Translations under genes and position numbers: made by a program | Notes under the pieces: generated by a model | Database searches by the model: none | Seen by the model: the letters and a program-made list of their open reading frames with translations, nothing else | Told to the model about the DNA's origin: nothing | In this document: positions 5,385-59,824 of the stretch, one piece after another | Position numbering within the stretch: the stretch's first letter is position 1 | Layout of the letters: each line of letters begins with the position of its first letter | DNA from: Squalus acanthias | Taxonomy: Eukaryota | NCBI GenBank assembly: GCA_030390025.1 | Contig: CM059453.1 | Location: 7,006,001-7,070,000 of the forward strand | Reading direction: 5' to 3' | DNA length: 64,000 nt

Positions 5385-5469
5385 GAACATTTCCCTGGGA
5401 AATTGTCATCTCAGTCCTAGCAGCCGCGGCAGTTATTCTGTTGATCCTGATCGTGGTGATGGTGCACAG
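5385..5469 (+). CDS. Gene A transmembrane exon (uncharged TM core)
   Basis: ttttag|GAACATTT...CACAG|GTATGT, phase 1 to 2: GTFPWEIVISVLAAAAVILLILIVVMVHR. Confidence 0.9.
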
Positions 5470-8528: not shown

Positions 8529-9159
8529 GTGAGTTAAATTGTGGCGTAGACCCCGTTTAACACCGAGATAAGTGAGGGCATGGCAACGGCCCAGCATCCG
8601 ATGGAGTTACCCCTGCCTGATATTGGCACTGTTTGTAACCAGAGTGAGCCACATTAACCGTGCAGTTCAACGGGTCAACACGTGTTCTGGACACCTGTTT
8701 GACGGAGTTTATAAGGGATACAATGAGCACCTCACACGACTGACAGAAAAGGTCATGTCCTGATAAATGCATCATGCATTTTCTCTGTAGTGGATTTCTA
8801 TTGAATTCAAAGTGTGTCTGAGAAAACCGATTGACCGTGTCACTACATGTATTAAACAGAATAATGTTTACGCTCCCCTCTCACACCACATTACCACCGG
8901 TGGTTTAAATAATCAACAAGATCACGTAGTATGAGGGCTTTGAGAGGGTCAAATAGCATGGCATTTTTGCTGGGATTATTAACATTGTCCTCCCTGGATT
9001 TTATGGCTCTATTTTACCGCGAGGCGGCAACATTCCGTGCGAGGGGCCTGGGTGAGCAATAGGCTCGCATGACCAAGCCCGGACAGATTTTGAATCCGGG
9101 GTCTTAATTCAATATCCAGCCCCGACTCCCACCCGAACCAGACTGAAATCTTTGGCTAT

Positions 9160-12350: not shown

Positions 12351-12554
12351 TTAGAGATTCAGAGAAGCGTCCTCTCTAAGTTCTGGTCCTTTTCTGGTAA
12401 ATTTAATAGCTGCATATTCGCTCATCTGCTTGCTATTTACATATCCGTGCCCTTCAGGAATATTTGAAAAGTGCACAGTGGTGTAAGTAATTTCTTCCTT
12501 CTGCTAAGTTGAGTTGGATATCACTTCCCAGCCGTCACTGTCTGGATGATCCCT
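12351..12554 (-). pseudogene. Gene C vestigial ITIM exon (ITYTTV, SEYAAI) with in-frame stop
   Basis: Minus strand ttgcag|AGGGAT...: RDHPDSDGWEVISNST*QKEEITYTTVHFSNIPEGHGYVNSKQMSEYAAIKFTRKGPELREDASLNL*. TAG at 12504-12506. Confidence 0.8.
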
Positions 12555-12645: not shown

Positions 12646-13366
12646 GGCACAGAATTACCGAGAACACGTACGCACTGTGTACTGTGTACTCACCCGCAAG
12701 GCCTCCTGAAGTGCCGGTTTCCTGCATGCACTGCGCATGCGTGGGAAACCGGCACTTCCGGTATGGCGAAGGGGGCGTTTCCTAGGTGAACCGCGTGCGC
12801 ACTAAAGGCTGCGCGCACGCAGCACATTTAGGTTTTTTTTCAGGTTTCAATGCGAGGGTAAGTATGGAAGATTCAACACAAGTAAAAAGGAGGCGTAAGA
12901 CCCCTTTTGAACAAGGTAAGTAGTTAATTAAGTATAATTTTAAAGAAAGGTAAGTTTATTATTATAACTTTTAAAAAGAATTCAAATTTTTTCAAAAATT
13001 TAAATTTTTGTTTAAAGTGCTTAATTTATTTAACTATAGTTATTTTATTAATGTGATGGATTTTTTAAAATTTATTTGAGGTTTAGCTGTTCTTTTGGGG
13101 CCGATTTCAATTCACAGATTTGACATCCTTTCAAATCTATGAATTAAAGATGGTCTGCTGCCATTGGCTCTCCATGGCCCACGTGATCCCAGGGATCGCA
13201 TCGCACTAACTGCGCCCCTGGGACACGCAAGCACTGCGCGCCGGCACTAGGGAAAGGCCCAGGACCCGAAGTTCCTGTGGGCCCGAAACACAACGGCAGG
13301 CGTGGTAGGTAAGAGCGCGCGCGATCCTTACCCCCGCGGCAAGCCGGCCACCCGAATTTCTAGGCC
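12646..13366 (+). mobile_element. MITE (non-autonomous DNA transposon), copy 1
   Basis: Ends GGCACAGAATT...AATTTCTAGGCC; GC-rich subtermini, AT-rich centre; no transposase ORF. Confidence 0.8.
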
Positions 13367-13378
13367 ATTGTTTTGGGC

Positions 13379-14040
13379 AGTTTATATGTAGAATAACGGA
13401 TACCCGGGAGTCAGATACAGGCTGTAATCTAATCGAGGAGTTCGGGTGAGGGCGGGGTTATATAAAGAATAACAGAAAACTGGGTGTGAGTTACAGCTCT
13501 GAATATAATCGAGGGGTTTCAGTGTGGTTTGTATATAGAATAACAGCTACCCGGGAGTGAGTTACAGGCTGGAATCGAATCGAGGGGTTTGGGGGAGGGT
13601 TTATATATAGAATAACAGTTACCCGGGAGTGATTTACAGGATGAAATCTAATCGAGGAGTTCGGGAGTGGGTCGGCGTTATATAAATAATTACAGATAAC
13701 TGGGAGTGAGTTACAGGCTGGAATCTAATCGAGGGGATTCAGTTTGGTCTGTATATAGAATAACAGATACCCAGGAGCGAGTTACAGGCTGGAATCTAAT
13801 CGAGGGGTTCGGGGGAGGGTTTATATATTGAATAACCGACAGTGGGGAATTAGTTCAAAATTGGAATCTAATCGAGGGTTTCGTGTGTTTTACATACAGA
13901 ATAACAGAAACCCGGGAGTGAGTTACAGGCTGGAATCTAATCGAGGGGTTCGGGTGGTTTATATATTGAATAACGGATACTCGGGGTGTGTGTTACAGGC
14001 AGGAATCTAATCGAGGGGTCCGGGCGGTTTATATATAGAA
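13379..14040. repeat. Minisatellite, ~9 units of 69-77 bp
   Basis: Core TATATAGAATAACAGATACCCGGGAGTGAGTTACAGGCTGGAATCTAATCGAGGGGTTCG. AATCGAGG occurs at 13431, 13507, 13578, 13650, 13727, 13798, 13870, 13939, 14009. Confidence 0.92.
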
Positions 14041-14370
14041 AGTGCTACGCAACCAATTGATTAATTATGTTCTAATTCCCTCGCTCGTTTATATCCGAGC
14101 TAACAAATGAGTTTCTGAGGGTGAAGTCTGGGCCAGGTGTAAGCTGGACCCATGCTTCAATCGCAGGTCTCTGCAAGGCTTGCAGCTGCCACACTATGAA
14201 TGACATCGACGCTAAATGGAATGAAACAGCCAGTGATCCAATTCCTGATCACTGCTGAGTGAGCCGTTCGCAACGCGTCACTGGGCCTGAATCTTAACTG
14301 GGTCAGCCCAGGGCCAGGCACAACTGTGTGCACGGAGCCCACTGGCAGTCAGTGCGCTTGAGTTAACAAT

Positions 14371-15130
14371 GGCCTAGAAATTCGCGTGACCGGCTTGCCG
14401 CGGTGGTAAGGATCGCGCGCGCTCTTACCCACCGCGCCTGCCGTTGTGTTTTGGGCCCACAGGAACTTCGGGTCCCGGGCCTCACCCAAGAGCCAGCGCG
14501 CAGTGCTTGCGTGTTCCAGGGGCGCAGTTAGTGCGATGCGACCCCTGGGATCATGTGGGCCATGGAGAGCCAATGGCAGCAGACGATCTTTCATTCATAG
14601 ATTTGACAGGAGAGCTGTCAAATCTGTGAATTGAAATCGGCCCCAAAAGAACAGCTAAACTTCAAATAAATTTAAAAAAAACATCACATTTATAAAATAA
14701 CTATATTTAAATAAATTAAACACTTTAAACAAAAATTTTAATTTTGAAAAAGTTAAAATACTTTTTTAAAGTTATGTAAATAAACTTACCTTTCATTAAA
14801 GTATCTTAAAAAGATAAACCTGTTGAAAAAAAATTAAAATTATCCTTAATTACCTACTTGCCTTGTACAAAAGAGGTCTTACGCCTCCTTTTTACTAGCG
14901 TAGAATCTTCAATACTTACCTTCGCATTGAAAGCTGAAAAAAAATTAAGTGTGCTGCGTGCGCGCAGCCTCTAGCGCGCACGCTGTTCACCTAGGAACCG
15001 CCCCCTTCACGCGACCGGATGTTCCGGTTTCCCGCGCATGCGCAGTGCATGCAGGAAACCGGCACTTCGGGAATGAATGCGGGTGAGTACGGACTGTGTA
15101 CTCACCCGGGAACGGACGAATTTTTGTGGC
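14371..15130 (-). mobile_element. MITE copy 2 (inverted relative to copy 1)
   Basis: aat|GGCCTAGAAATTCG...GAATTTTTGTGGC|aac. Confidence 0.8.
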
Positions 15131-15469
15131 AACTGGATCCAAGAGAACAATTGAACCGTGCGCAAGCCAAAGGAGAAATTATTCGCAGGCGCTAGCCTAA
15201 AACTGGCGTTATCGCATCGCAGGGAATTAAATAGTAAGATGGGCATAGAACAGGCGGCCGTTCCGTTTTGCGCTTCCGTCCAATACAAATCCCACTCCAA
15301 CGGTTCTGAAACGGAAGGATACATTGGGAACTGACAAGAACAGACAGTTAGTGAGAAGAAGCATTAGATCTCCCGTGTACTGACAGTGTGTCATGGGATT
15401 AAATACAGTGGCTACACCGCGCCACCTACTGGCCATAGCCAGAAACTGCACAATCATCCGAATTCGCCA

Positions 15470-17220
15470 GGGGCAGAAATTCGTCAGTTGTCGGGTGAGT
15501 CCGCACTGTGCACTCACCCCTGGACTGAACGAAAGTGCCGGTTTCTTTCATGCACTGCGCATGCGCGGGAAACCGGCACTTCCGTTCCCCTGAGCAAAGG
15601 GGTTTAGATGTCGAACGGCCACGCCGGAGGGCCAGCGCGTTCGCCTCGCATTTCGGGGTTTTTTTGCAGGTGCCTCCGTGAAGGTAAGCACGGAGAAGAT
15701 ACACATTGGCCTAGAAATTCGGGTGGCCGGTTTGCCGCGGGGGTAAGGATCGTGCGCGCTCTTACCTACCGCGCCTGCCGTTGTGTTTCGGGCCCACAGG
15801 AACTTCGGGTCCTGGGCCTTTCCCTAGTGCCGGCGCGCAGTGCTTGCGTGTCCCAGGGGCGCAGTTAGTGCGATGCGATCCCTGGGATCACGTGGGCCAT
15901 GGAGAGCCAATGGCAGCAGACCATCTTTCATAGATTTGACAGGATGTCAAATCTGTGAATTGCAATCGGCCCCAAAAGAACAGCTAAACCTGAAATAAAT
16001 TTAAAAAAATCCATCACATTAATAAAATAACTATAGTTAATTAAATTAATCACTTTAAACAAAAATTTAAATTTTTGAAAACATTTAAATTCTTTTTAAA
16101 AGTTATAAAAATAGGCCCAAAAATTCGGCCGAATACGGGAGAGTACCCGCTGCGTGCTCAATCGTATTAGTTCCCGAAGTGCCGGTTTCCTGCATGCACT
16201 GCTCATGCACGGGAAACCGGCACTTCCGGTATGGTGTGTGGGGCGGTTCCTAGGTGAACCGCGTGCGCACTAAAGGCTACGCGCACGCAGCACACATAGG
16301 TTTTTTTTCAGGTTTCAACGCGAGGGTAAGTATGGAAGATTCTACACAAGTAAAAAGGAGGCGTAAGACCCCTTTTGAACAAGGTAAGTAGTTAATTAAG
16401 TATAATTTTAAATTTTTTTAACAGAATTATCTTTTTTAGAGATTTTAAAGAAAGGTAAGTTTATGGCCCAGAAATTGAAGTTCGATGGTTGCCGCGGGGG
16501 TAAGGATCCCCCGCGATATCGCACTCCGCGCCTGCCTTTATAGTTTTGGCCCACACGAACTTCAGTTCCTGGGCCTCTCCCTGGTGCCGGCGCGCAGTGT
16601 GTGCGTGTCCCAGAGGCGCAGTTACTGCGATGCGACCTCTGGGATCACGTGGGCCAGTTAGAGCCAATGGCAGCACACCATCTTTCATTCATAGTTTTGA
16701 CAGGAAGAAAATTATGAATACAACAAGCCCCCAAAAGAACAGCTAAACCTCAGTTAAACTTTAAAAAAGCCATCACATTAATAAAATAACTATAGTTAAA
16801 TAAATTAACCACTTTAAACAAAAATTTAAATTTTTGAAAAAATTTAAATACTTTTTAAAAGTTATAAAAATAAACTTACCTTTCTTTAAAGTCTCTAAAA
16901 AAGATAAACCTGTTGAAAAAAATTTAAAATAATACTTAATTAAATACTTACCTTGTTAAAAGGGGGTTTTACGACTGCTTTCTTCATGTGTAAAATCTTC
17001 AACACTTACCTGCGCGTTCAAACCTGAAAAAAAACGAAGTGTGCTGCGTGCGCGCAACCTATAGCGCGCACACAGTTCACTGAGGAACCGCCCCCTTCGC
17101 AATATACGAAGTGCCGGTTTCCCACGCATGCGCAGTGCATGCAGGAAACCGCCACTTCGGGACCTAATACGCGAGAGTACACAGTGCGTAATCTCCCGTA
17201 TTAGGTCTAATTTTTGTGCC
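15470..17220. mobile_element. Nested MITE stack: 15470-15707 (+, partial), 15708-16113 (-, partial), 16114-16464 (+, partial), 16465-17220 (-, full)
   Basis: Four terminal inverted repeat (TIR) starts: GGGGCAGAAATTC, GGCCTAGAAATTC, GGCCCAAAAATTC, GGCCCAGAAATTG. The last copy is flanked by TAT/TAT. Confidence 0.8.
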
Positions 17221-17544: not shown

Positions 17545-17630
17545 CTTAGTTCAGTGGGTTGTGCAACACACAGTTAATCACTGCACCCTTGTCTGTAGGA
17601 GAGACCCCAACAGGGACATTTACCTTCTTC
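17545..17630 (-). CDS. Gene C cytoplasmic exon, short tyrosine-free tail
   Basis: tttctgtttcag|GAAGAAG...: (R)KKVNVPVGVSPTDKGAVINCVLHNPLN*, then G|GTAAGT. Homologous to cytoplasmic exon 1 of A/B. Confidence 0.7.
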
Positions 17631-18426: not shown

Positions 18427-18521
18427 CTGTGTGAATCAATCTCTATCGTCACCAAGACAATGATGCCAATCAGAATTAGAACTGAGACGGCGGCTCTGAT
18501 TGACAATTCTCCGAAATGATC
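18427..18521 (-). CDS. Gene C TM exon with Arg (activating type); 95 nt, out of phase by +1 with the upstream exon
   Basis: atattttag|GATCATTTC...CACAG|GTATGG. The hydrophobic frame reads DHFGELSIRAAVSVLILIGIIVLVTIEIDSHR. In phase 1 it reads GSFRRIVNQSRRLSSNSDWHHCLGDDRD* (stop 18436-18438). Confidence 0.7.
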
Positions 18522-18860: not shown

Positions 18861-19500
18861 AGATTAAATATCACAGTCTCCCTGAGAGACTTCATCAATA
18901 CACGCCGCATACTCGGATCTGCTCGCTTGCTATCCGATATTTTACTTCAGTCTATAATTTGCTCTTTCAGTTATCGAAGTTATCCTGGCTCCATTGTCAG
19001 TGTTATTGCACTGTATAGTTCTTTCAGAATATCTTCAGGACAACAAAACCGGCAGTCGGCTGAAATATCTGTGAAAAAATGTTGAACTGATCGACTGTAC
19101 CCCAGTAACGTTACAATGAGAGGAAACATGATTTCAAGAAGTGTGTCAGTAAGTCAGAAGGGTCTATTTTATTAAAGATCACACGCTGCTTCTAGTGTTT
19201 TATATTATCCCTCCTATCTTCACAAAAACAAGGCGACAATAATCAAATTCAGATACCGAAGTATAAACTTTACATGAATTATTCCCATCGTAACTTTCCG
19301 TGAGTTAGCGCTCAGTCATGAACCTGTCCCAAACACTACTGAAAATAAAATTGGATTAATTCCTACTTTAGAGATAAGAATGTTTTTTTCAGGTCAGTGG
19401 AACTGGTACTTGCTGACACTAACACCGTTCAGTTAGTCACTTACAGGTGATGGACCGAACCGTCTGCAGTAATTAAATTACAGGAAAATGCAATATATAC

Positions 19501-19788
19501 CTTCAGATTGGAGCTGGTATTTTCCGACAGTAACGCCATGCTCGCTTACTCCAAAACATAAGATCAGGTGTCCAGTTCCAGTCGGGTGAGTCAGTGTCAG
19601 GGAGCTCTGCACCAGGTGACTATTCCACTCCGAGGAGGGGATATTGATTTCTGAACTGTTCGCTGTGATGTTTCCCCCATTGATGCCCCAGGTGATGTTT
19701 GCTGGGGGGTTGGCTCTGACACTGCAGGTACAATGAATCCCATTGTCGGGACTGGTGCAGGTCAGACCTGATACTATTGTGGGTTTAT
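19501..19788 (-). CDS. Gene C C2c exon
   Basis: 288 nt, AG/GT intact: KPTIVSGLTCTSPDNGIHCTCSVRANPPANITW...LILCFGVSEHGVTVGKYQLQSE (ORF 19478..19825). Confidence 0.88.
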
Positions 19789-24125: not shown

Positions 24126-24383
24126 ATTCTACAGAAATCTGTGTGAAGCTGTTCGCTTTGCCAAAGTTATTGTCAGCGACGCACCAATATTCACCGTTAT
24201 AATCAGAACTAATGTTGTGGAATATCTGCTTCAGTTCAACAGTGGAAGACCTGCTGATCTCTTCACCATTTCGGACCAAGATTATGTTGCCCCGTATGGT
24301 CCCCCGGGCCGTGCAGTATAATAATAAAAAGCTCCCTTCCACTGCCGCTATAGAGGAATTGATGTCTGTTTTTTGTGGGCCAT
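24126..24383 (-). CDS. Gene C C2b exon
   Basis: 258 nt, AG/GT intact: GPQKTDINSSIAAVEGSFLLLYCTARG...GEYWCVADNNFGKANSFTQISVE. Confidence 0.88.
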
Positions 24384-25694: not shown

Positions 25695-26006
25695 ATTTAA
25701 CATCCAGTGTAAGAGTTTCTTGAACAGTAGCCGAGGCACCGTCGACTATAAGTTTACCTCCCAGCTTCTTCCCATGATGGTCCAGTGATGGGCTGAAGTT
25801 GAAAGTGGATGAAACCTTCTGAGAACCCTCCTTACTGTTATCATGTTTTTTTGAAGTTTTAATCTCTGGCAGTAATTGAGGTACGACATTGTCCTTGGTC
25901 CACCTCAATTCAAGGTTGGCGGACGGGCAACTGTGGGTGACTGAGCAGGTCAGATGTGCTGGCTTTCCTGCAATCAATTCCCCAGAGACTGATATCCGTG
26001 GTTTAT
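25695..26006 (-). CDS. Gene C C2a exon (Siglec domain-2 type; F-strand Cys replaced by Gly)
   Basis: 312 nt, open: KPRISVSGELIAGKPAHLTCSVTHSCPSANLELRW...DHHGKKLGGKL...LDVK. Paralogs have KKLGC. Confidence 0.82.
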
Positions 26007-27940: not shown

Positions 27941-28582
27941 TCTAGAATCCCGATCACCGCTCCAGCTCAATTGCGCCACAGGTTAGCAAGACCATAACTA
28001 AAGCAAACCAAGCACTAGGGTTTATTCCGAGACAGATAGAATTGAAAAGTAGGGCCTGATAATCTACATCCTAGGGTACTTAAGGAAGTGGTCCCAGAAA
28101 CAGTAGCTGCATTGCTGGTCATCTTCCAAAATTCTATAGACTCCGGAACAGTTCCCTTGGAATGGAGGGTAGCTAATGTAACCCCACTATTTAAAAAAGG
28201 TGGTAGAGAGATAACGGGGAATTATAGATCTGTAAGTCTGACATCGGTCGTGGGGAATCCATTCATGGTCTGAGCTAACTTACATACATACATAGTACAT
28301 ACGGCACAGAAACAGATCATTGGGCCCAACCAGTCCATGCCGGCGTTTATGCTCCACTCGAGCCTCCTCCCTTCTTAACCCATCTAAATCTATCAGCGTA
28401 ACCCGCTATTCCCTTCTCCCTCATATGCTTGTCCAGCCTCCCCTTAAATGCATCTATACTATTCGCTTTAACCACTCCCTGGCTGCAAAAAAATCAGACA
28501 TTGGAAGCCTTTGCAATTATTTTTCATATAAACCACATCCCTGGAGTAACAAATATTACTCCATTCGTCTGGGACAAATAGT

Positions 28583-29322
28583 GGCCCAAAAATTAGTCCC
28601 GCGACGCGAGAGTACGCACTGTGTACTCTCGCGTATTCTGTCTCCAAATGCCGGTTTACTGCATGCCCTGCGCATGCGCTGAAAACCGGCACTTTTTGAA
28701 TGGGAAAGGGGGCGGGTCCTCGGTGCACCGCGTGCGCGCTACAGGCTGCGCGCACACTGTGCACTTAGTGCTTTGGACGCGCAGGTAAGTACAGAAGATT
28801 TTAGAAATGAAAAAAGGAGTAAGACCCACTTTTAACAAGGTAAGTAGTGAATTAAGAATTATTTTGAATTTTTTTTAACAGGTATATCTTTTTTAGAGAC
28901 TTTAAAGACAGGTAAATTTATTTTTATAACTTTTTAAAAGTTTTTAAATTTTTTCAAAAATTAAATTTTTTATTTAAAATGGTTAATTTATTTAACTATA
29001 CTTATTTTATTAATGTGAAGGTTTTTTTTTTAATTTAATTGAGGTTTAGCTGTTATTTTGGGGGTGTGTAAGATTCATAGCTTTCACAGCACGTCTGTTA
29101 AACTTATGAATGGAAGATGGTGTGCTGTCATTGGCTCTAACTGAGTCACGTGATCCCACAGCTCGCACGAATTCACTACGCCGGTGGGATACGAAAGCAC
29201 TGCACAGCAGCTGTCCAGAACATGAAGTTCGTGCGAGCTGGAACTGAAAAAGCCAACGCGGAGTGAGAGAGCGCGGGGAAGCCTTACCCCCGCGTCAACA
29301 CTCAGTCTTTAATTTCTGGGCG
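28583..29322 (+). mobile_element. MITE with 3-bp target-site duplication (TSD) AGT
   Basis: caaat-AGT-[GGCCCAAAAATT...AATTTCTGGGCG]-AGT-gtgac. The paralogous empty site caaat-aat-gtgac is at ~25562-25574. Confidence 0.88.
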
Positions 29323-29369
29323 AGTGTGACTTACAAGAAGCTTCGATTATCCAGGCGAGCTATCACTAT

Positions 29370-30115
29370 GGGCCAAAAATTCGGCACTTGCGCTGTGCCC
29401 TCACCTGCAAGGCCTCCCGAAGTGCCGGTTTCCTGCATGCACTGCGCATGCACGGGAAACCGGAACTTCCGGTCTCGTGAAGGGAGGGGGTTAAAAGTGA
29501 AACGCGTGCACGGGAGAGGCCGTGCGCACGCAGCGAACTCAGGTTTTTTTCAGGTTTCTCCTGGAAGGTAATTATGGAAGAAGCTGAGCTTTTAAAAAGG
29601 AGGCGCAGGACCCGTTTTTAACAAGGCAAGGGGTTAATAAATACAATTTAAAAAAGTTTTCAACAGGTTTATCTTTTTCAGATACTTTAAAGAAAGGCAA
29701 GTTTATTTTTAGCACTGTTAAAAAGTATTTTAATTTTTTCAAAAATTTAAATTTTTGTTTAAAGAAGTTAATTTATTTAACTTAAAGTTATTTTAAAAAT
29801 GTGATGTTTTTTTAATTTATTGGAAGTTTAGGTGTTGTTTTGGGCCGATTTCTATTCATAGATTTGACAGGTCTTCCTGTCAAATCTATGACTGAAAGAT
29901 GGTCTGCTGCCATTGTCTCACCTTGCCCCACGTGATCCCAGGGGACACATGGCACTAACTACGCCGCTGGGATACACAAGCACTGCGCGCCAGCAGTTGG
30001 GACAGGCCCAGGAGCTGAAGTCCATGTGGGCCAGGAAGTTAACTGCAGGCGCGGTAGGTAGGTGCGCGTAGGATCATTGCACCCGCGGGAAGCCAGGGTG
30101 CCGAATTTCTGGGCC
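29370..30115 (+). mobile_element. MITE
   Basis: GGGCCAAAAATTCGGCAC...GTGCCGAATTTCTGGGCC; absent from the paralogous intron of gene C. Confidence 0.85.
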
Positions 30116-30183
30116 ACATACAAACATTTATTGAACCAGTTCATCACTAAGTTGGTTGAATGAAGCGTAGAGCAGCCACTTAT

Positions 30184-30495
30184 ATTTAACATCCAGTTTA
30201 AGAGTTTCTTCAACAGTAGCCGAGGCACCGTCGACTATAAGTTTACATCCCAGCTTCTTCCCATGATGGTCCAGTGATGGGCTGAAGTTGAAAGTGGATG
30301 AAACCTTCTGGGAATCATCGAAACTGTTATCATGTTCTTATGAAGTTTTAATCTCTTGCAGAAATGGAGGTACAACATTGTCCTTGGTCCACATCAATTC
30401 ATGGTTGGCGGACGGGCAACTGTGGGTGACTGAGCAGATCAGGTGTGCTGGTTTTCCTGCAATCAATTCCCCCGAGACTGATATCCCTGGTTTAT
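30184..30495 (-). pseudogene. Orphan C2a exon copy D (stop codon and lost donor)
   Basis: 312-nt paralog of 25695-26006; TAA at 30338-30340; donor GT changed to AT. Confidence 0.85.
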
Positions 30496-31609
30496 CTGTA
30501 AGGAGAGAAGAACATTCGTGTTACCGTAGATTTTAATTTAAAAAATGGCCAATGTTGTGCAAGTTGATTTAGCCCAAAGACTTTGAAACATGACCCTATG
30601 ATATGGGGCCTGTAAATGATCTGATTGAAGAAATCACTCCTAAGTATTGACCATGTCCTCTGACCTGTTAATTAGAAGTACAACTCTTGATTTATTTTTC
30701 CACATCCTTGAGGGATTGGATTTTGACACACCGGTCTTTACTTTTATTGAATCATGGAATGTGAGCGTCGCTGACAAGGCCAACATTTATTGCCCATCCC
30801 TAATTACCCTTGAGAAGGTGGTGGTGAGCTACCTTCTTGAACCGCTGCAGTCCGTGTGCTGAAGGTACTCCCACAGTGCTGTTAGGGAGGGAGTTCCATG
30901 ATTTTGACACAGTGACGATGAAAGTTTGGCGAATAGTGTGAGGCCAGAGCAGGGACAAATCGCATCGCATTTCTACAGCATTTTTGCACCTTCCTCCATG
31001 TGTCTTGGTGTCAGTTTGGCTGATTTGCTAGCGCGCACTCTCTGAAGCTGAAGGTTGTGGGTTGCAACCTCACGTCACGATTTGAGGCTTTCAGCTTTCG
31101 CGTGACTCCGGTGTCATACTCTGGGCGCGTCGCATTGTTGGAGGTGCGGCATTTCAGATATACCGAGGCTCTGGCTCCAGCTCGATACTCTCAATGGCAT
31201 GCACTGTGAGAAGGAGAGGACAGACTCTTAATCCCAGGCCCAGGCTGCCTGTTCCAGTGGTTCAGGTGGATGTTAGCATTCCCATGCACTACTGCAAGAA
31301 GAACAGAGATTGCACCACACGTGGTGTTTAGATCTCCTCCAAAGCCAGCAAATTGTGACTGCTTAGCCAATGATCTCATTTGCTGTTTGCAGTCGCTGGT
31401 TGTAAGCAGGTTTACAGTAGCACGTCCATTGTAATGCACTGGGTACAAGGCATTGCTGTCCTGATAATTCGCTGTACGAAAACCTAAAACTATTTTAGAT
31501 GTCTGGTGATTGTTATTTACCATGGGGCTCATCGACACTTGTAATAAGTTATCGGCTCTTGTGATGAGTGCGAATTCGCTGCAACAATTCAAAAAGAAAC
31601 TGGACCAAC

Positions 31610-32057
31610 ATAAGAACATAAGAAACAGGGGCAGGAATAGGCCAATTGGCCCCTCGAGCCTGCTCCGCCATTCAATAAGATCATGGCTGATCTTGGGCTC
31701 AAAGCCACTTCCCCACCCGTTCCCCATAACCCTTCAATCACTTATCTTGCAAAAATCTGTCTATCTCCACCTTAAATGTATTTAATGACCCAGCCTCCAC
31801 AGCTCTCTGGAGCATAGAATTCCACAGATTTACGACCCTCTGAGAGAAGAAATTCCTCCTCATCTCAGTTCTAAAAGGGCGACCCTTTATTCTGAAACTA
31901 TGCCCCCGAGTTCCAGATTTCCCCACGAGGGGTACATCCTCTCTGTATCTGCCTTGTCGAATCCCCTCGATATCATATATGTTTCAATAGGATCACCTCT
32001 CATTCTTCTAAATTCAAATGAGTATAGGCCCAACCTGCTCAACCTTTCTTCATAAGT
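31610..32057 (-). mobile_element. CR1 3' end (duplicate at 36185-36632)
   Basis: TRGHSFRIKGRPFRTEMRRNFFSQRVVNLWNS. Confidence 0.85.
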
Positions 32058-32509
32058 CTAAAAGGACGAATTCCTTAATTGGGCTAATATCAGTGTACAC
32101 TAATCTTAGGTGGGATGCTTGGTGATCTACCTCATGGACACTGTTGTCCCCTTGGAACTCGTTTTGTTAATCTTCGGGGTCGTAGAATAATTTTGCGGAT
32201 TCCTGAATTGGCCGAGTGCTATTTACATATTTTTGCCTCCCGCGAGAGGTTGCATGGTGGTGAGAGGGAATACTGCCGTCATGATGCATTGTTGCGTACT
32301 GACTGTTTTGGATAGACTCATTGGCCAGTCGATTATTTCCTGTTCGTCTTTTCAGACGTCTGTATTTTCCAAAGCTCAGAATGTGTCCCTCTCTGAGTGA
32401 GAACAATGGAAAATGATCAGAGAAGCGAGAAAGAGGGTTATTCTGGTACAGGAAACGCCCTCACGCCATATCTCTTGCTCCCTATCTAACCCATTCCTTT
32501 CTGTTACAG

Positions 32510-32689
32510 AGCCAAGACCAGTACAGAAATATTGCTATCAGATGGTCTACATTCAACAATCATCGCAAAGTCTAGAGGGTCTGCACGCAATCCATGAATG
32601 TTTGAAGTCTTCACAGATATGAAAGATATCTCCAGAAGGAGGAGTCCAGTGAATACACCACGATTAAGTTTAAATCAAATCCAGTTTGA
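32510..32689 (+). pseudogene. Degenerate terminal ITIM exon of another + strand paralog
   Basis: ctgttacag|AGCCAAGACCAG...; frameshifted, ends YLQKEESSEYTTIKFKSNPV*; first ITIM Tyr codon changed to CAC. Confidence 0.75.
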
Positions 32690-33578
32690 TTTAATCCATT
32701 TGGACTGTTGGAGCTCGTCAATATCTCAACACAACTGGTTCATCAGATAGAAAAGAACGTCACATTACAGGGATTGCTGAGAAAATGCGCATATTTCGCA
32801 GATTAATTGTTAACATTTTTCAATTCTGCTTGTTGCTTTTTAAATTTACAATCCCGCACATGTTTTCATTCAAACCACATGTCTGAAATGCTGTGGGCTT
32901 TAAAGGTCAGAGTAACTTTGAAACTGCTTTTGATGTGCTTTAATAGAATAGCAGTCTTCATGAGTAATATTAACAGTGTTTCCATTGCAGAGCTCCCTCT
33001 GTTACATTCATAGACAACCCTGCTGGTCATCGATGAACCTCTCTATCGTCAGCTGGATTAGTTTGTCAGCCTCTGTCAGCCTAGTATAATATACCTTCAC
33101 ATCGCAGTATCAGTTCCCAAGAGTTTCCTTTACAGCACCCGGACTTTTATCAACCTCTTGTCAATTCCAGAAGAGACATTCAGAATCAGGGTACAATGTA
33201 AGCAAAATCATTATAAAGAATGGATCTGGGTATTTTGTCAAGTATTGCTGCTCGCATTAGATTCCGCTCGTTATCAAACTGTACAGAACATAGAACATAA
33301 AAAAATAGGAGCAGGAGCAAACCATTCGGCCCCTCGAGCCTGCTCCGCCATTCAATAAAATCATGGTTGATCTGATCTTGGTCTCAACTCCACTTTCCTT
33401 TCCGCTCCCCGTAATCCTTGACTCCCGATAGGTCAACAATCGATCCATTTCCACCTTAAATATATTCAATGACTCCGCCTCCATAGCTCTCTGGGGAAGA
33501 GAATTTCAAGATTCACGACCTTCTAAGAGAAGAACTTCCTCCTCATCTCAGTTTTAAATGTGCGACCCCTTATTCTGA

Positions 33579-34690
33579 ATTTTATTAATGTGAAGGTTTT
33601 TTTTTAAATTTAATTGAGGTTTAGCTGTTATTTTGGGGGTGTGTAAGATTCATAGCTTTCACAGCACGTCTGTTAAACTTATGAATGGAAGATGGTGTGC
33701 TGTCATTGGCTCTAACTGAGTCACGTGATCCCACAGCTCGCACGAATTCACTACGCCGGTGGGATACGAAAGCACTGCACAGCAGCTGTCCAGAACATGA
33801 AGTTCGTGCGAGCTGGAACTGAAAAAGCCAACGCGGAGTGAGAGAGCGCGGGGAAGCCTTACCCCCGCGTCAACACTCAGTCTTTAATTTCTGGGCCAGT
33901 GTGACTTACAAGAAGCTTCGATTATCCAGGCGAGCTATCACTATGGGCCAAAAATTCGGCACTTGCGCTGTGCCCTCACCTGCAAGGCCTCCCGAAGTGC
34001 CGGTTTCCTGCATGCACTGCGCATGCACGGGAAACCGGAACTTCCGGTCTCGTGAATGGAGGGGGTTAAAAGTGAAACGCGTGCACGGGAGAGGCCGTGC
34101 GCACACAGCGAACTCAGGTTTTTTTCAGGTTTCTCCTGGAAGGTAATTATGGAAGAAGCTGAGCTTTTAAAAAGGAGGCGCAGGACCCGTTTTTAACAAG
34201 GCAAGGGGTTAATAAATACAATTTAAAAAAGTTTTCAACAGGTTTATCTTTTTCAGATACTTTAAAGAAAGGCAAGTTTATTTTTAGCACTGTTAAAAAG
34301 TATTTTAATTTTTTCAAAAATTTAAATTTTTGTTTAAAGAAGTTAATTTATTTAACTTAAAGTTATTTTAAAAATGTGATGTTTTTTTAATTTATTGGAA
34401 GTTTAGGTGTTGTTTTGGGCCGATTTCTATTCATAGATTTGACAGGTCTTCCTGTCAAATCTATGACTGAAAGATGGTCTGCTGCCATTGTCTCACCTTG
34501 CCCCACGTGATCCCAGGGGACACATGGCACTAACTACGCCGCTGGGATACACAAGCACTGCGCGCCAGCAGTTGGGACAGGCCCAGGAGCTGAAGTCCAT
34601 GTGGGCCAGGAAGTTAACTGCAGGCGCGGTAGGTAGGTGCGCGTAGGATCATTGCACCCGCGGGAAGCCAGGGTGCCGAATTTCTGGGCC
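33579..34690 (+). mobile_element. Duplicated MITEs (right half 33579-33897; full copy 33945-34690)
   Basis: Copies generated by the 4575-bp duplication. Confidence 0.85.
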
Positions 34691-34758
34691 ACATACAAAC
34701 ATTTATTGAACCAGTTCATCACTAAGTTGGTTGAATGAAGCGTAGAGCAGCCACTTAT

Positions 34759-35070
34759 ATTTAACATCCAGTTTAAGAGTTTCTTCAACAGTAGCCGAGG
34801 CACCGTCGACTATAAGTTTACATCCCAGCTTCTTCCCATGATGGTCCAGTGATGGGCTGAAGTTGAAAGTGGATGAAACCTTCTGGGAATCATCGAAACT
34901 GTTATCATGTTCTTATGAAGTTTTAATCTCTTGCAGAAATGGAGGTACAACATTGTCCTTGGTCCACATCAATTCATGGTTGGCGGACGGGCAACTGTGG
35001 GTGACTGAGCAGATCAGGTGTGCTGGTTTTCCTGCAATCAATTCCCCCGAGACTGATATCCCTGGTTTAT
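34759..35070 (-). pseudogene. Orphan C2a exon copy D' (tandem duplicate of D)
   Basis: Same lesions at offset +4575 (TAA 34913-34915). Confidence 0.85.
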
Positions 35071-37084
35071 CTGTAAGGAGAGAAGAACATTCGTGTTACC
35101 GTAGATTTTAATTTAAAAAATGGCCAATGTTGTGCAAGTTGATTTAGCCCAAAGACTTTGAAACATGACCCTATGATATGGGGCCTGTAAATGATCTGAT
35201 TGAAGAAATCACTCCTAAGTATTGACCATGTCCTCTGACCTGTTAATTAGAAGTACAACTCTTGATTTATTTTTCCACATCCTTGAGGGATTGGATTTTG
35301 ACACACCGGTCTTTACTTTTATTGAATCATGGAATGTGAGCGTCGCTGACAAGGCCAACATTTATTGCCCATCCCTAATTACCCTTGAGAAGGTGGTGGT
35401 GAGCTACCTTCTTGAACCGCTGCAGTCCGTGTGCTGAAGGTACTCCCACAGTGCTGTTAGGGAGGGAGTTCCATGATTTTGACACAGTGACGATGAAAGT
35501 TTGGCGAATAGTGTGAGGCCAGAGCAGGGACAAATCGCATCGCATTTCTACAGCATTTTTGCACCTTCCTCCATGTGTCTTGGTGTCAGTTTGGCTGATT
35601 TGCTAGCGCGCACTCTCTGAAGCTGAAGGTTGTGGGTTGCAACCTCACGTCACGATTTGAGGCTTTCAGCTTTCGCGTGACTCCGGTGTCATACTCTGGG
35701 CGCGTCGCATTGTTGGAGGTGCGGCATTTCAGATATACCGAGGCTCTGGCTCCAGCTCGATACTCTCAATGGCATGCACTGTGAGAAGGAGAGGACAGAC
35801 TCTTAATCCCAGGCCCAGGCTGCCTGTTCCAGTGGTTCAGGTGGATGTTAGCATTCCCATGCACTACTGCAAGAAGAACAGAGATTGCACCACACGTGGT
35901 GTTTAGATCTCCTCCAAAGCCAGCAAATTGTGACTGCTTAGCCAATGATCTCATTTGCTGTTTGCAGTCGCTGGTTGTAAGCAGGTTTACAGTAGCACGT
36001 CCATTGTAATGCACTGGGTACAAGGCATTGCTGTCCTGATAATTCGCTGTACGAAAACCTAAAACTATTTTAGATGTCTGGTGATTGTTATTTACCATGG
36101 GGCTCATCGACACTTGTAATAAGTTATCGGCTCTTGTGATGAGTGCGAATTCGCTGCAACAATTCAAAAAGAAACTGGACCAACATAAGAACATAAGAAA
36201 CAGGGGCAGGAATAGGCCAATTGGCCCCTCGAGCCTGCTCCGCCATTCAATAAGATCATGGCTGATCTTGGGCTCAAAGCCACTTCCCCACCCGTTCCCC
36301 ATAACCCTTCAATCACTTATCTTGCAAAAATCTGTCTATCTCCACCTTAAATGTATTTAATGACCCAGCCTCCACAGCTCTCTGGAGCAGAGAATTCCAC
36401 AGATTTACGACCCTCTGAGAGAAGAAATTCCTCCTCATCTCAGTTCTAAAAGGGCGACCCTTTATTCTGAAACTATGCCCCCGAGTTCCAGATTTCCCCA
36501 CGAGGGGTACATCCTCTCTGTATCTGCCTTGTCGAATCCCCTCGATATCATATATGTTTCAATAGGATCACCTCTCATTCTTCTAAATTCAAATGAGTAT
36601 AGGCCCAACCTGCTCAACCTTTCTTCATAAGTCTAAAAGGACGAATTCCTTAATTGGGCTAATATCAGTGTACACTAATCTTAGGTGGGATGCTTGGTGA
36701 TCTACCTCATGGACACTGTTGTCCCCTTGGAACTCGTTTTGTTAATCTTCGGGGTCGTAGAATAATTTTGCGGATTCCTGAATTGGCCGAGTGCTATTTA
36801 CATATTTTTGCCTCCCGCGAGAGGTTGCATGGTGGTGAGAGGGAATACTGCCGTCATGATGCATTGTTGCGTACTGACTGTTTTGGATAGACTCATTGGC
36901 CAGTCGATTATTTCCTGTTCGTCTTTTCAGACGTCTGTATTTTCCAAAGCTCAGAATGTGTCCCTCTCTGAGTGAGAACAATGGAAAATGATCAGAGAAG
37001 CGAGAAAGAGGGTTATTCTGGTACAGGAAACGCCCTCACGCCATATCTCTTGCTCCCTATCTAACCCATTCCTTTCTGTTACAG

Positions 37085-37264
37085 AGCCAAGACCAGTACA
37101 GAAATATTGCTATCAGATGGTCTACATTAAACAATCATCGCAAAGTCTAGAGGGTCTGCACGCAATCCATGAATGTTTGAAGTCTTCACAGATATGAAAG
37201 ATATCTCCAGAAGGAGGAGTCCAGTGAATACACCACGATTAAGTTTAAATCAAATCCAGTTTGA
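37085..37264 (+). pseudogene. Duplicate of the degenerate terminal ITIM exon
   Basis: Copy of 32510-32689 at offset +4575. Confidence 0.75.
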
Positions 37265-37859
37265 TTTAATCCATTTGGACTGTTGGAGCTCGTCAATATC
37301 TCAACACAACTGGTTCATCAGATAGAAAAGAACGTCACATTACAGGGATTGCTGAGAAAATGCGCATATTTCGCAGATTAATTGTTAACATTTTTCAATT
37401 CTGCTTGTTGCTTTTTAAATTTACAATCCCGCACATGTTTTCATTCAAACCACATGTCTGAAATGCTGTGGGCTTTAAAGGTCAGAGTAACTTTGAAACA
37501 GTTTTTGATGTGCTTTAATAGAATAGCAGTCTTCATGAGTAATATTAACAGTGTTTCCATTGCAGAGCACCCTCTGTTACATTCATAGACAACCCTGCTG
37601 GTCATCGATGAACCTCTCTATCGTCAGCTGGATTAGTTTGTCAGCCTCTGTCAGCCTAGTATAATAAACCTTCACATCGCAGTATCAGTTCCCAAGAGTT
37701 TCCTTTACAGCACCCGGACTTTTATCAACCTCTTGTCAATTCCAGAAGCGACATTCAGAATCAGGGTACAATGTAAGCAAAATCATTATAAAGAATGGAT
37801 CTGGGTATTTTGTCAAGTATTGCTGCTCGCATTAGATTCCGCTCGTTATCAAACTGTAA

Positions 37860-38230
37860 AGAACATAAGATCATAAGAAATAGGAGCAGGAGCAAATTAT
37901 TCGGCCCCTCGAGCCTGCTCCGCCATACAATAAAATCATGGTTGATCTGATCTTGGTCTCAACTCCACTTTCCTCTCCGCTCCCCGTAATCCTTGACTCC
38001 CGATAGGTCAACAATCGATCCATTTCCACCTTAAATATATTCAATGACTCCGCCTCCATAGCTCTCTGGGGAAGAGAATTTCAAGATTCACGACCTTCTA
38101 AGAGAAGAACTTCCTCCTCATCTCAGTTTTAAATGTGCGACCCCTTATTCTGAATCAATGCCCCCTAGTTCTAGATTACACCTAGAGGGGAAACACCCTC
38201 TCTGCATCTACACTGACAAGCCCCCTCAGA
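37860..38230 (-). mobile_element. CR1 3' end (truncated duplicate at 33285-33578)
   Basis: CR1 tail and ORF2 end; the duplication breakpoint lies within it. Confidence 0.8.
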
Positions 38231-45013: not shown

Positions 45014-45394
45014 TTGTCCATAGTTCACGATGGTCTGTGAAGGTGCCGTGGAAGGTGTCGGCGGTGAGCGGATCATGTGCTGAGATCCCGTGTACATTTG
45101 ATTATCCCGCCTCTGGCCGCAATCCAGGGTGTATGTGGTTAAAGGGGGGTCCTAAACCTGGTACCTCAGGGGTCTCGATTGTCTATGATTCCAGTGATGC
45201 AAACAATAAAGACTATAACGATAGAGGACGAATTGAATTCACCGGCGATTTTCTAAAGAAACAATGTTCCTTACAGATTAATGTCACCAGGAAGAGCGAT
45301 GCAGGTGACTATTACTTCAGAGTGAAGATCACCACCGCCTGGAATATAACAGATCAATACGTTTCCAAATCTCCTGTCTCTCTTTCTATTTTAG
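45014..45394 (+). CDS. Gene B Siglec V-set exon
   Basis: ttttttcaccag|TTGTCC...TTAG|GTAAGT, 381 nt: WSVKVPWKVSAVSGSCAEIPCTFDYP...KQCSLQINVTRKSDAGDYYFRV. Siglec B-E strand cysteines, no F-strand Cys, essential Arg at 45319-45321. Confidence 0.93.
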
Positions 45395-46199: not shown

Positions 46200-46511
46200 A
46201 TAAACCACGGATATCAGTCTCTGGGGAATTGATTGCTGGAAAACCAGTACACCTGACCTGCTCAGTCACCCACAGTTGCCCGTCCACCAACCTTGAACTG
46301 ATGTGGACTCATGACTAAGTTGTCCCTCCTTTTCTGCCAGAGAGTAAAACTTCAAAAGGAAATGGCGACAATGTCGAGGGTTCCCAGAAGGTTTCATCCA
46401 CTTTTAACTTCAGCCCATCACCGGACCATCATGGGAAGAAACTGGGATGTAAACCTATAGCCGACGGTGTCACAGCTACCGTTCAACCAACTCTTGCACC
46501 GGATGTTAAAT
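46200..46511 (+). pseudogene. Gene B C2a exon, inactivated
   Basis: Acceptor ttacag replaced by ttatt; TAA at 46316-46318; donor T|GTAAGT still present. Confidence 0.85.
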
Positions 46512-54476: not shown

Positions 54477-54561
54477 GAACATTTCCCTGGGAAATTGTCA
54501 TCCCAGTATTAGCAGCCGCCGGAGTTATCCTGCTGATCCTGATCGTGGTGATGGTGCACAA
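54477..54561 (+). CDS. Gene B TM exon (uncharged core)
   Basis: GTFPWEIVIPVLAAAGVILLILIVVMVHK; 85 nt, AG/GT intact. Confidence 0.9.
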
Positions 54562-59194: not shown

Positions 59195-59824
59195 GTGAGT
59201 TACATTGTACTGTAGACCCCGTTTAACACGGAGGTAAGTGAGTGCATGGCAACTGCCCAACATTCGATGGAGTTACCCCTGTCTGATATTGGCACTGTTT
59301 GCAACCACAGTGAGTCACATTAACCATGCAGCTCAACGGGTCAACAGGTTTTCCAGAAAATTGTTTGACTGTGTTTTTAAAGGGTGGAATGAACAGCTTA
59401 CACTACCAACAGAAAGTGATGTGCTTGTCATGTCCTGGTCAATGCATCGTGCATTTTCTCTGTCGTGGATTTCTATTGAATTCAAAGTGGGTCTAAGGGT
59501 ATCGATTGACCGTGTCATGACATATATTAATCAGAGTAATATTTACACTCACCTCACCCATGGCAGTACATCCGGTGCTTTAAATTATCAACAAGATCAC
59601 ATAGTAAGAGGGGTTTGAGAGGGTGAAATAGAATGGTATTTCTCTGGGATTATCTACATTGTCCTAACTGGTTTTTATGGCGCTATTTTACCGCGCGGCG
59701 GCAACAATCTGTGCGCGGGTCCTGGGTGAGCAAAAGGCTCGCATGGGACAGGTTTTAAATCCGGGGTCTTAATTTAATGTCCAGCCCCGACTCCCACCCG
59801 AACCCGACTGCAATCATTGGCTAT

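Follow-up and report, generated by a model that had tools for sequence, protein, structure and literature searches.

The window, a stretch of 64,000 nucleotides of Squalus acanthias DNA (contig CM059453.1), holds three related immunoglobulin (Ig)-superfamily genes, here called A (plus strand), C (minus strand) and B (plus strand), with the 5′ end of gene A lying beyond the window edge. When the membrane-proximal Ig exon of gene C was used as a query, 13 of 88 candidates were matched, 12 of them from sharks, with Siglec-, MAG- or hemicentin-like annotations (56–66% identity), and one a weakly matching amphioxus protein; the best match came from Heptranchias perlo. On the strength of the 12 shark proteins we assign the locus to a cartilaginous-fish Siglec/MAG-like cluster. 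Pfam matches and the names of the homologs show the C2 domains to be homologous to those of MAG/CD22/CD33-type Siglecs. A lead from the Atlas pointed to a SIGLECL1-like cluster (0.95), a search of Rfam gave no matches, and the repeats around the three genes we take to be LINE- and SINE-like. The features to which we refer are the following, TM denoting transmembrane.

5385–5469, plus strand: TM exon of paralog A, uncharged, 85 nt, phase 1 to phase 2
12351–12554, minus strand: ITIM/ITSM-type terminal exon with an in-frame TAG (12506–12504)
17545–17630, minus strand: cytoplasmic exon 1 of gene C, continuing the hydrophobic frame of the TM exon, without Tyr, TAA at 17548–17546, 2 nt shorter than in A/B
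18427–18521, minus strand: Arg-bearing TM exon of gene C, frameshifted, 95 nt long, acceptor TTTTAG/, donor AG/GTATGG
18436–18438, minus strand: TGA stop in the reading that follows from splicing of the TM exon at the conserved phase-1 junction
18495–18497, minus strand: Arg codon AGA, in the alignment column of the P-I-R Arg conserved in the orthologs P0019 and P0023
18500–18502, minus strand: approximate site of a 5-nt deletion, inferred from ortholog length, where the ortholog-like reading changes frame
19501–19788, minus strand: membrane-proximal C2-type Ig exon of gene C, phase-1 end, 91% DNA identity to A and B
24126–24383, minus strand: gene C, second C2-type Ig exon, with an open frame and intact AG/GT
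25695–26006, minus strand: gene C, first C2-type Ig exon, in which Gly (GGT, 25758–25756) takes the place of the second Cys
45014–45394, plus strand: V-set exon of gene B, the sole V-set in the window, with an Arg in its F-strand YYFRV motif
54477–54561, plus strand: TM exon of paralog B, uncharged, 85 nt, phase 1 to phase 2

Genes A and B carry stops as well. Both have a TAG at the identical codon of cytoplasmic exon 1 (8547–8549 and 59213–59215), which severs the ITIM exons, and in gene A a TAA at 8535–8537 replaces Tyr and the donor is broken (GAG/ATAAGT). The whole cluster may be decaying, or A and B may be tail-truncated receptors. The first C2 exon of gene B (46200–46511, plus strand) has lost its acceptor AG and contains a TAA at 46316–46318; skipping this exon would leave a V-C2-C2-TM frame. 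A 4.6-kb segment is present as a tandem duplicate at 99.6% identity (29004–33580 and 33579–38155), each copy holding, on the minus strand, a C2 exon with a stop (30495–30184, 35070–34759) and, on the plus strand, an ITIM-type exon with a frameshift (about 32510–32680, 37085–37255). The segment was either duplicated very recently or doubled in assembly, and the assembly of the window is therefore possibly imperfect. A minisatellite (unit of ~71 bp, 9 copies, 13380–14040) lies between the tails of genes A and C, and related interspersed repeats in both orientations are clustered at 12672–17220, with more copies at 28580–30135 and 33580–34710.

An earlier sequence-only reading had placed a TM exon with an N-terminal Arg at 18427–18521, and the exon is indeed there, on the minus strand, flanked by the acceptor and donor listed above. 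Its likeness at the start to the neutral TM exons of A and B was also correctly seen, the acceptor TTTTAG/GA being identical in all three genes. The peptide quoted from it fared less well: one frame of the exon does give that peptide, with its Arg at AGA 18497–18495, but it is not the spliced product, and over its first seven residues it is out of frame. In A, B and C alike the proximal Ig exon has 288 nt and a phase-1 end, the 3′ end in gene C reading GAA G/GTATAT. Since the hydrophobic frame would need a phase-0 junction, splicing does not reach it. Joined at the conserved sites, the gene C TM exon encodes 28 polar residues and then a stop, without a TM segment, whereas the 85-nt TM exons of A and B splice in frame.

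The frame history of the exon can be read against two intact orthologs, P0019 from Cetorhinus maximus (basking shark; annotated 'Siglec 13') and P0023 from Mustelus asterias (annotated 'MAG-like'). These were the only two intact orthologs found, both are computer gene models, and their tails are uncertain. Each has a 34-residue TM of the form W-x5-P-I-R ... S-H-R, which would correspond to a 100-nt exon (against 95 nt in gene C and 85 nt in A/B) and hence to a loss of 5 nt in gene C. Over the first seven residues the spliced frame of gene C is identical to P0019 at 5/7 and to P0023 at 2/7 positions, and the frame of the sequence-only reading at 1/7 in each case; the hydrophobic frame is thus ancestral only from about 18500 onward. 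The 25-residue part of that frame, aligned without gaps, matches P0019 at 11 and P0023 at 10 residues. Its score against these two was reached by none of 2000 shuffles, which places the likeness above chance, whereas its scores against A and B were reached by 10/2000 and 19/2000, respectively. A search of the PDB with the 25-residue TM returned no match at E up to 10. That the Arg codon had been created by the deletion in a decaying copy, as the DNA alignment with A/B had made conceivable, was rejected in view of the identical Arg of the orthologs.

The same exon bears on whether gene C might still function, the frameshift and missing V exon being assembly errors or a cryptic acceptor restoring the frame, a reading that we regard as improbable. 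The near-perfect 4.6-kb duplicate just upstream lends it some credit, as do the intact splice sites of the remaining exons and a GAG acceptor at 18508 that would restore the frame with the Arg kept. However, among 17 AG sites scanned between 18700 and 18440 only three restore the hydrophobic frame, and this GAG, 13 nt behind the conserved TAG, is the sole one that also keeps the Arg. GAG acceptors are rare. Rescue by an alternative donor was rejected, since each of the four frame-restoring donors would truncate the Ig domain, and the filter let no micro-exon candidate through. Losing 5 nt away from a homopolymer would, moreover, be an unusual sequencing error, and the lost Ig Cys and the missing leader and V exon are independent lesions.

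No leader or V-set exon for gene C was found on its strand in the window with V-set and leader profiles or with the full-length family profile; the V-set and leader profiles matched exons of gene B only. A candidate decayed V exon at about 38700–38580 (tblastn E 0.19) was not recovered by a V-set profile built from 13 homologs. At TM position 4 gene C has Arg where both orthologs have Trp. The Tyr-less, stop-ended cytoplasmic exon 1 may reflect decay or may be the normal short tail of an activating receptor. The terminal exon at 12351–12554, 5 kb downstream, is a candidate part of gene C and is 65% identical to the C-terminal part of P0005, a receptor of another type. The idea that the gene C tail is wholly of this type holds for that exon and fails for cytoplasmic exon 1, which scores 6 against it and 55 against P0001, and a search with the tail region gave no matches among 870 candidates. 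Pairwise dN/dS over the Ig exon does not set gene C apart (0.69 and 0.56 for its pairs, versus 0.66 for A–B). From the TM frameshift, the missing leader and V exon and the lost Ig Cys, we conclude that gene C is most likely a pseudogene, which would itself signal through nothing.

A profile search matched 1199 proteins at E up to 0.001, of which the best 150 were used; the profile spans 371 positions and so extends beyond the proximal Ig domain. A filter of at least 45% identity to the gene C Ig domain kept 26 of 159 proteins. The TM count covers 32 of 161 proteins, four of which lack a TM in their models (P0004, P0007, P0022 and P0026); outside it stand the amphioxus protein P0013 and 128 profile matches that are at most 37% identical to the proximal Ig or have no 70-residue match. 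The resulting set of 34 TM segments comprises 31 from 28 proteins together with the three window exons. In the TM tree (34 TMs, 31 columns) P0019, P0023 and gene C form a clade with support 99/89, the composition of P0023 being flagged as odd, and an AU test against grouping gene C with A/B gave no more than p=0.042. Scored against the gene C TM, P0019 and P0023 reach 76 and 71, and the other 31 TMs at most 43. The Arg column reads G in 24, R in three, A, V and L in two each and E in one of the 34 TMs, and all three lineages have the Arg, an Ile before it and S-H-R at the end. Conservation of the Arg, on which the sequence-only reading had staked its proposal, was borne out by its retention in P0019 and P0023, which belong to two shark orders. 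Gene C resembles these two in its TM type (34 residues in full), Arg column and S-H-R end; it differs in being 5 nt shorter and frameshifted, with no V exon in the window. We therefore consider it probable, on the alignments at hand, that the gene C exon is a frameshifted remnant of a conserved second TM module in a shark Siglec/MAG-like receptor family.

P0019 and P0023 are open through the TM and have a V-set domain with an F-strand Arg. The modelled tail of P0019 contains no Tyr, and the P0023 model ends three residues past S-H-R, as if the donor had been read through. Against the PDB, P0019 gave 15 matches, all MAG or Siglecs; the ectodomain matches were to MAG, CD33, CD22, sialoadhesin and Siglec-5, and a fold search with the P0019 model (mean pLDDT 64) ranked MAG and CD22 on top. 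P0014 from Scyliorhinus torazame, whose Arg lies two columns earlier and whose TM ends in S-H-H (83/64), may be a fourth Arg-type member. A basic residue occupies this earlier column in P0011 (Lys) and P0015 (Arg) also; separately, P0006 has Glu in the Arg column itself and P0017 has Lys one column later. Changes in adaptor binding may thus be concentrated in the outer TM turn. Several of the family's public gene models look faulty: in P0001, P0005 and P0014 adjacent genes are joined, with a GPCR included in P0005, and the P0007 model skips the TM exon and reads the tail out of frame. Arg-type genes may be under-annotated.

The Arg-type TM and the Ig domain to which it is attached have different relatives. 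In the Ig tree, P0023 groups with P0024 of the same species (100/99; 95% identity over the proximal Ig) and P0019 with P0003 of Carcharodon (99/99; 85% identity), while gene C is nearest A/B (82%, no starred support), and a single clade of the three Arg-type Ig domains was rejected by an AU test (p=0.00017). The Arg-type Ig domains thus sit with uncharged-TM, ITIM-bearing paralogs of their own lineage, and no ITIM was linked to an Arg-type TM in any model examined. Within the window the same division is seen along the gene: DNA identity of C to A/B is 86–91% over the Ig exons, 71–80% over the TM exon and 57–59% over cytoplasmic exon 1, versus 87–97% between A and B along the same exons, with a step in identity near 19400. 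As far as sequence can tell, this discordance of Ig and TM has the pattern of paired receptors, and gene conversion or exon exchange may be the cause of the ectodomain matching.

The origin of the Arg was examined in the DNA around the exon. The intron flanks of the gene C TM exon are 74–78% identical to those of A/B, and flanks and exon start together match the A/B TM locus at ~70% across some 350 nt. The family-wide Gly in 24/34 TMs and the A/B-like flanking introns imply that the Arg arose on a Siglec exon, without borrowing from LILRA/FCAR, which upholds the independent origin on a Siglec scaffold suggested by the sequence-only reading. These alignments demonstrate that the Arg-type module, which closes with a longer segment ending in S-H-R, descends from the ordinary TM exon of the family, and a single base change could convert a Gly codon to AGA. 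By the same token, capture of the exon from an LRC/FcR-like gene, which would make the likeness to FcRγ partners one of homology, is very remote: NxxR TMs are common to unrelated Xenopus families in the accessible text of PMC6557307 (as in Xenopus XFL), but flanks and exon start here belong to the A/B TM locus, and gene C has an intact phase-2 donor followed by a cytoplasmic exon rather than the single TM-plus-short-tail exon of NxxR genes, which opens with a DYT consensus (available portions of PMC2413239, PMC6557307).

Shark and mammalian TM residues were compared through published descriptions, cited here in their accessible portions. The FcRγ-coupling signature is given there as NxxR (PMC2413239, PMC6557307, PMC4536121), and the earlier assignment of a LILRA/FCAR-type signature to gene C did not survive the comparison: Asn is absent from position −3 in all 34 TMs, where P0019 has Leu and P0023 has Phe, and the DYT-like D-H-F start stems from the wrong frame, the true one giving G-S/P-F. 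Of the C-terminal E..SH, cited in support of the same assignment, the acidic residue near the TM C-terminal end occurs in gene C and P0023 and is absent from P0019, and the His, which also ends the neutral exons of A and B, is not specific. What did stand is the placement of the Arg: like that of FcRγ partners, it lies within the N-terminal third of the TM (PMC1440944, accessible part). In P0019 and P0023 it occupies position 5–6 of the best 20-residue hydropathy window, with hydrophobic residues on either side; in gene C it does so only in the frame unreached by splicing. A structure model has a helix at 348–366 with Arg349 near its start, with pLDDT <50 at 338–352.

Siglec-14 uses an N-terminally placed Arg for DAP12, and shark annotations later than the 2014 data discussed below list an FcRγ chain. 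According to the available sections of PMC1440944, the Arg of FcαRI is at TM position 3, the basic residue of DAP12 partners lies at 7–12, and DAP12 prefers Lys, a KIR K9R mutant assembling at 15%. The accessible part of PMC13107469 adds that in CD89 an Arg placed one turn lower is tolerated, and that the Arg-Asp-Asp contact of zeta dimers is the same. Taken together, the Arg position and these contact data modestly favour the zeta/gamma family, and by position alone FcRγ coupling would be plausible. For the intact Arg-type receptors we rate an adaptor of this family (FcRγ or CD3ζ) at about an even prospect, with the other outcomes behind it.

Coupling to DAP12 (or DAP10), in the manner of mammalian activating Siglecs and not through FcRγ, we judge the less likely course. 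In the accessible text of PMC6890642 Siglecs pair with DAP12 via a TM 'lysine or arginine', and a screen of 2014 (PMC4016189, in the portion available) found no FcRγ chain in sharks; these two points weaken the contrast of FcRγ rather than DAP12 that the sequence-only reading had drawn. NxxR is absent, and the shark Arg comes 7 residues after the interfacial Trp, near the 7–12 range of DAP12 partners (PMC1440944, same sections). The accessible portions of PMC13233462, PMC6288428, PMC13262535 and PMC8198044 do not name the residue used by Siglec-14. Against DAP12 stand its disfavour of Arg in type I proteins, as in the KIR mutant, and the Pro two residues before the Arg, which in a low-confidence model region is probably the helix start and would bring the Arg near position 3.

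Unlikelier than DAP12 pairing is an Arg that serves as an interfacial anchor without any adaptor, the receptor being a tailless decoy. An Arg just past a helix-starting Pro could reach the head groups, and basic residues near the Arg column occur in P0011 (Lys) and P0015 (Arg), which have Tyr-bearing tails, as does P0006 with its Glu. A basic residue at the Arg column is thus not necessarily activating. However, the Arg, Ile and S-H-R are kept in three lineages while the ectodomains turn over, and the Arg is flanked on both sides by hydrophobic residues.

Leaving the choice of adaptor aside, we propose that intact members such as P0019 and P0023 would be the activating halves of paired receptors. 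Their V-set domain would bind a sialylated ligand, the TM Arg would contact the paired Asp residues in a dimer of an ITAM adaptor to give a signal, and gene conversion or exon exchange would keep the ectodomain matched to that of the inhibitory partner. We offer only tentatively, as somewhat doubtful in its entirety, the scenario in which a Gly-to-Arg change, arising independently in sharks, made an inhibitory Siglec-like TM activating through FcRγ, or through CD3ζ if sharks lack FcRγ, without DAP12, the module being kept across orders by repeated re-fitting to the local inhibitory ectodomain and the window copy being dead.

The nearest known systems are the Siglec-5/14 and 11/16 pairs, in which, in the accessible parts of PMC13358205 and PMC4042635, a near-identical ectodomain is shared with an ITIM-bearing neighbour, TM and tail diverge, the TM has a basic residue and gene conversion is described. 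The shark family likewise shares its ectodomain with an ITIM-bearing paralog and has a divergent TM and tail with a basic TM residue; unlike these pairs, it is lineage-specific, is set beside CD33-related Siglecs by likeness, and includes a broken member in gene C. To the extent that the published descriptions permit comparison, it also resembles the NxxR FcRγ partners (LILRA, FCAR/CD89, GPVI, OSCAR, NCR1 and Xenopus XFL TM1) in its type I TM with the Arg in the N-terminal third and in a short or Tyr-less tail; an acidic residue near the C-terminal end is present in two of three members. It differs from them in having P-I-R, no true-frame DYT, a separate cytoplasmic exon in gene C, a Siglec-like rather than LRC ectodomain and a TM descended within its own family.

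In the open-access literature, as far as its accessible text extends and with subscription journals mostly outside the scope of the search, we found no description of a shark or fish Siglec with an Arg-type TM. Such a TM bears on which ITAM adaptor sharks use, FcRγ not having been found in the published screen (PMC4016189, available portion). Most descriptions of paired activating and inhibitory Siglecs concern primates, and these receptors use DAP12 for signalling; if sharks have a conserved Arg-type TM, the paired design would seem to have arisen separately in cartilaginous fish.
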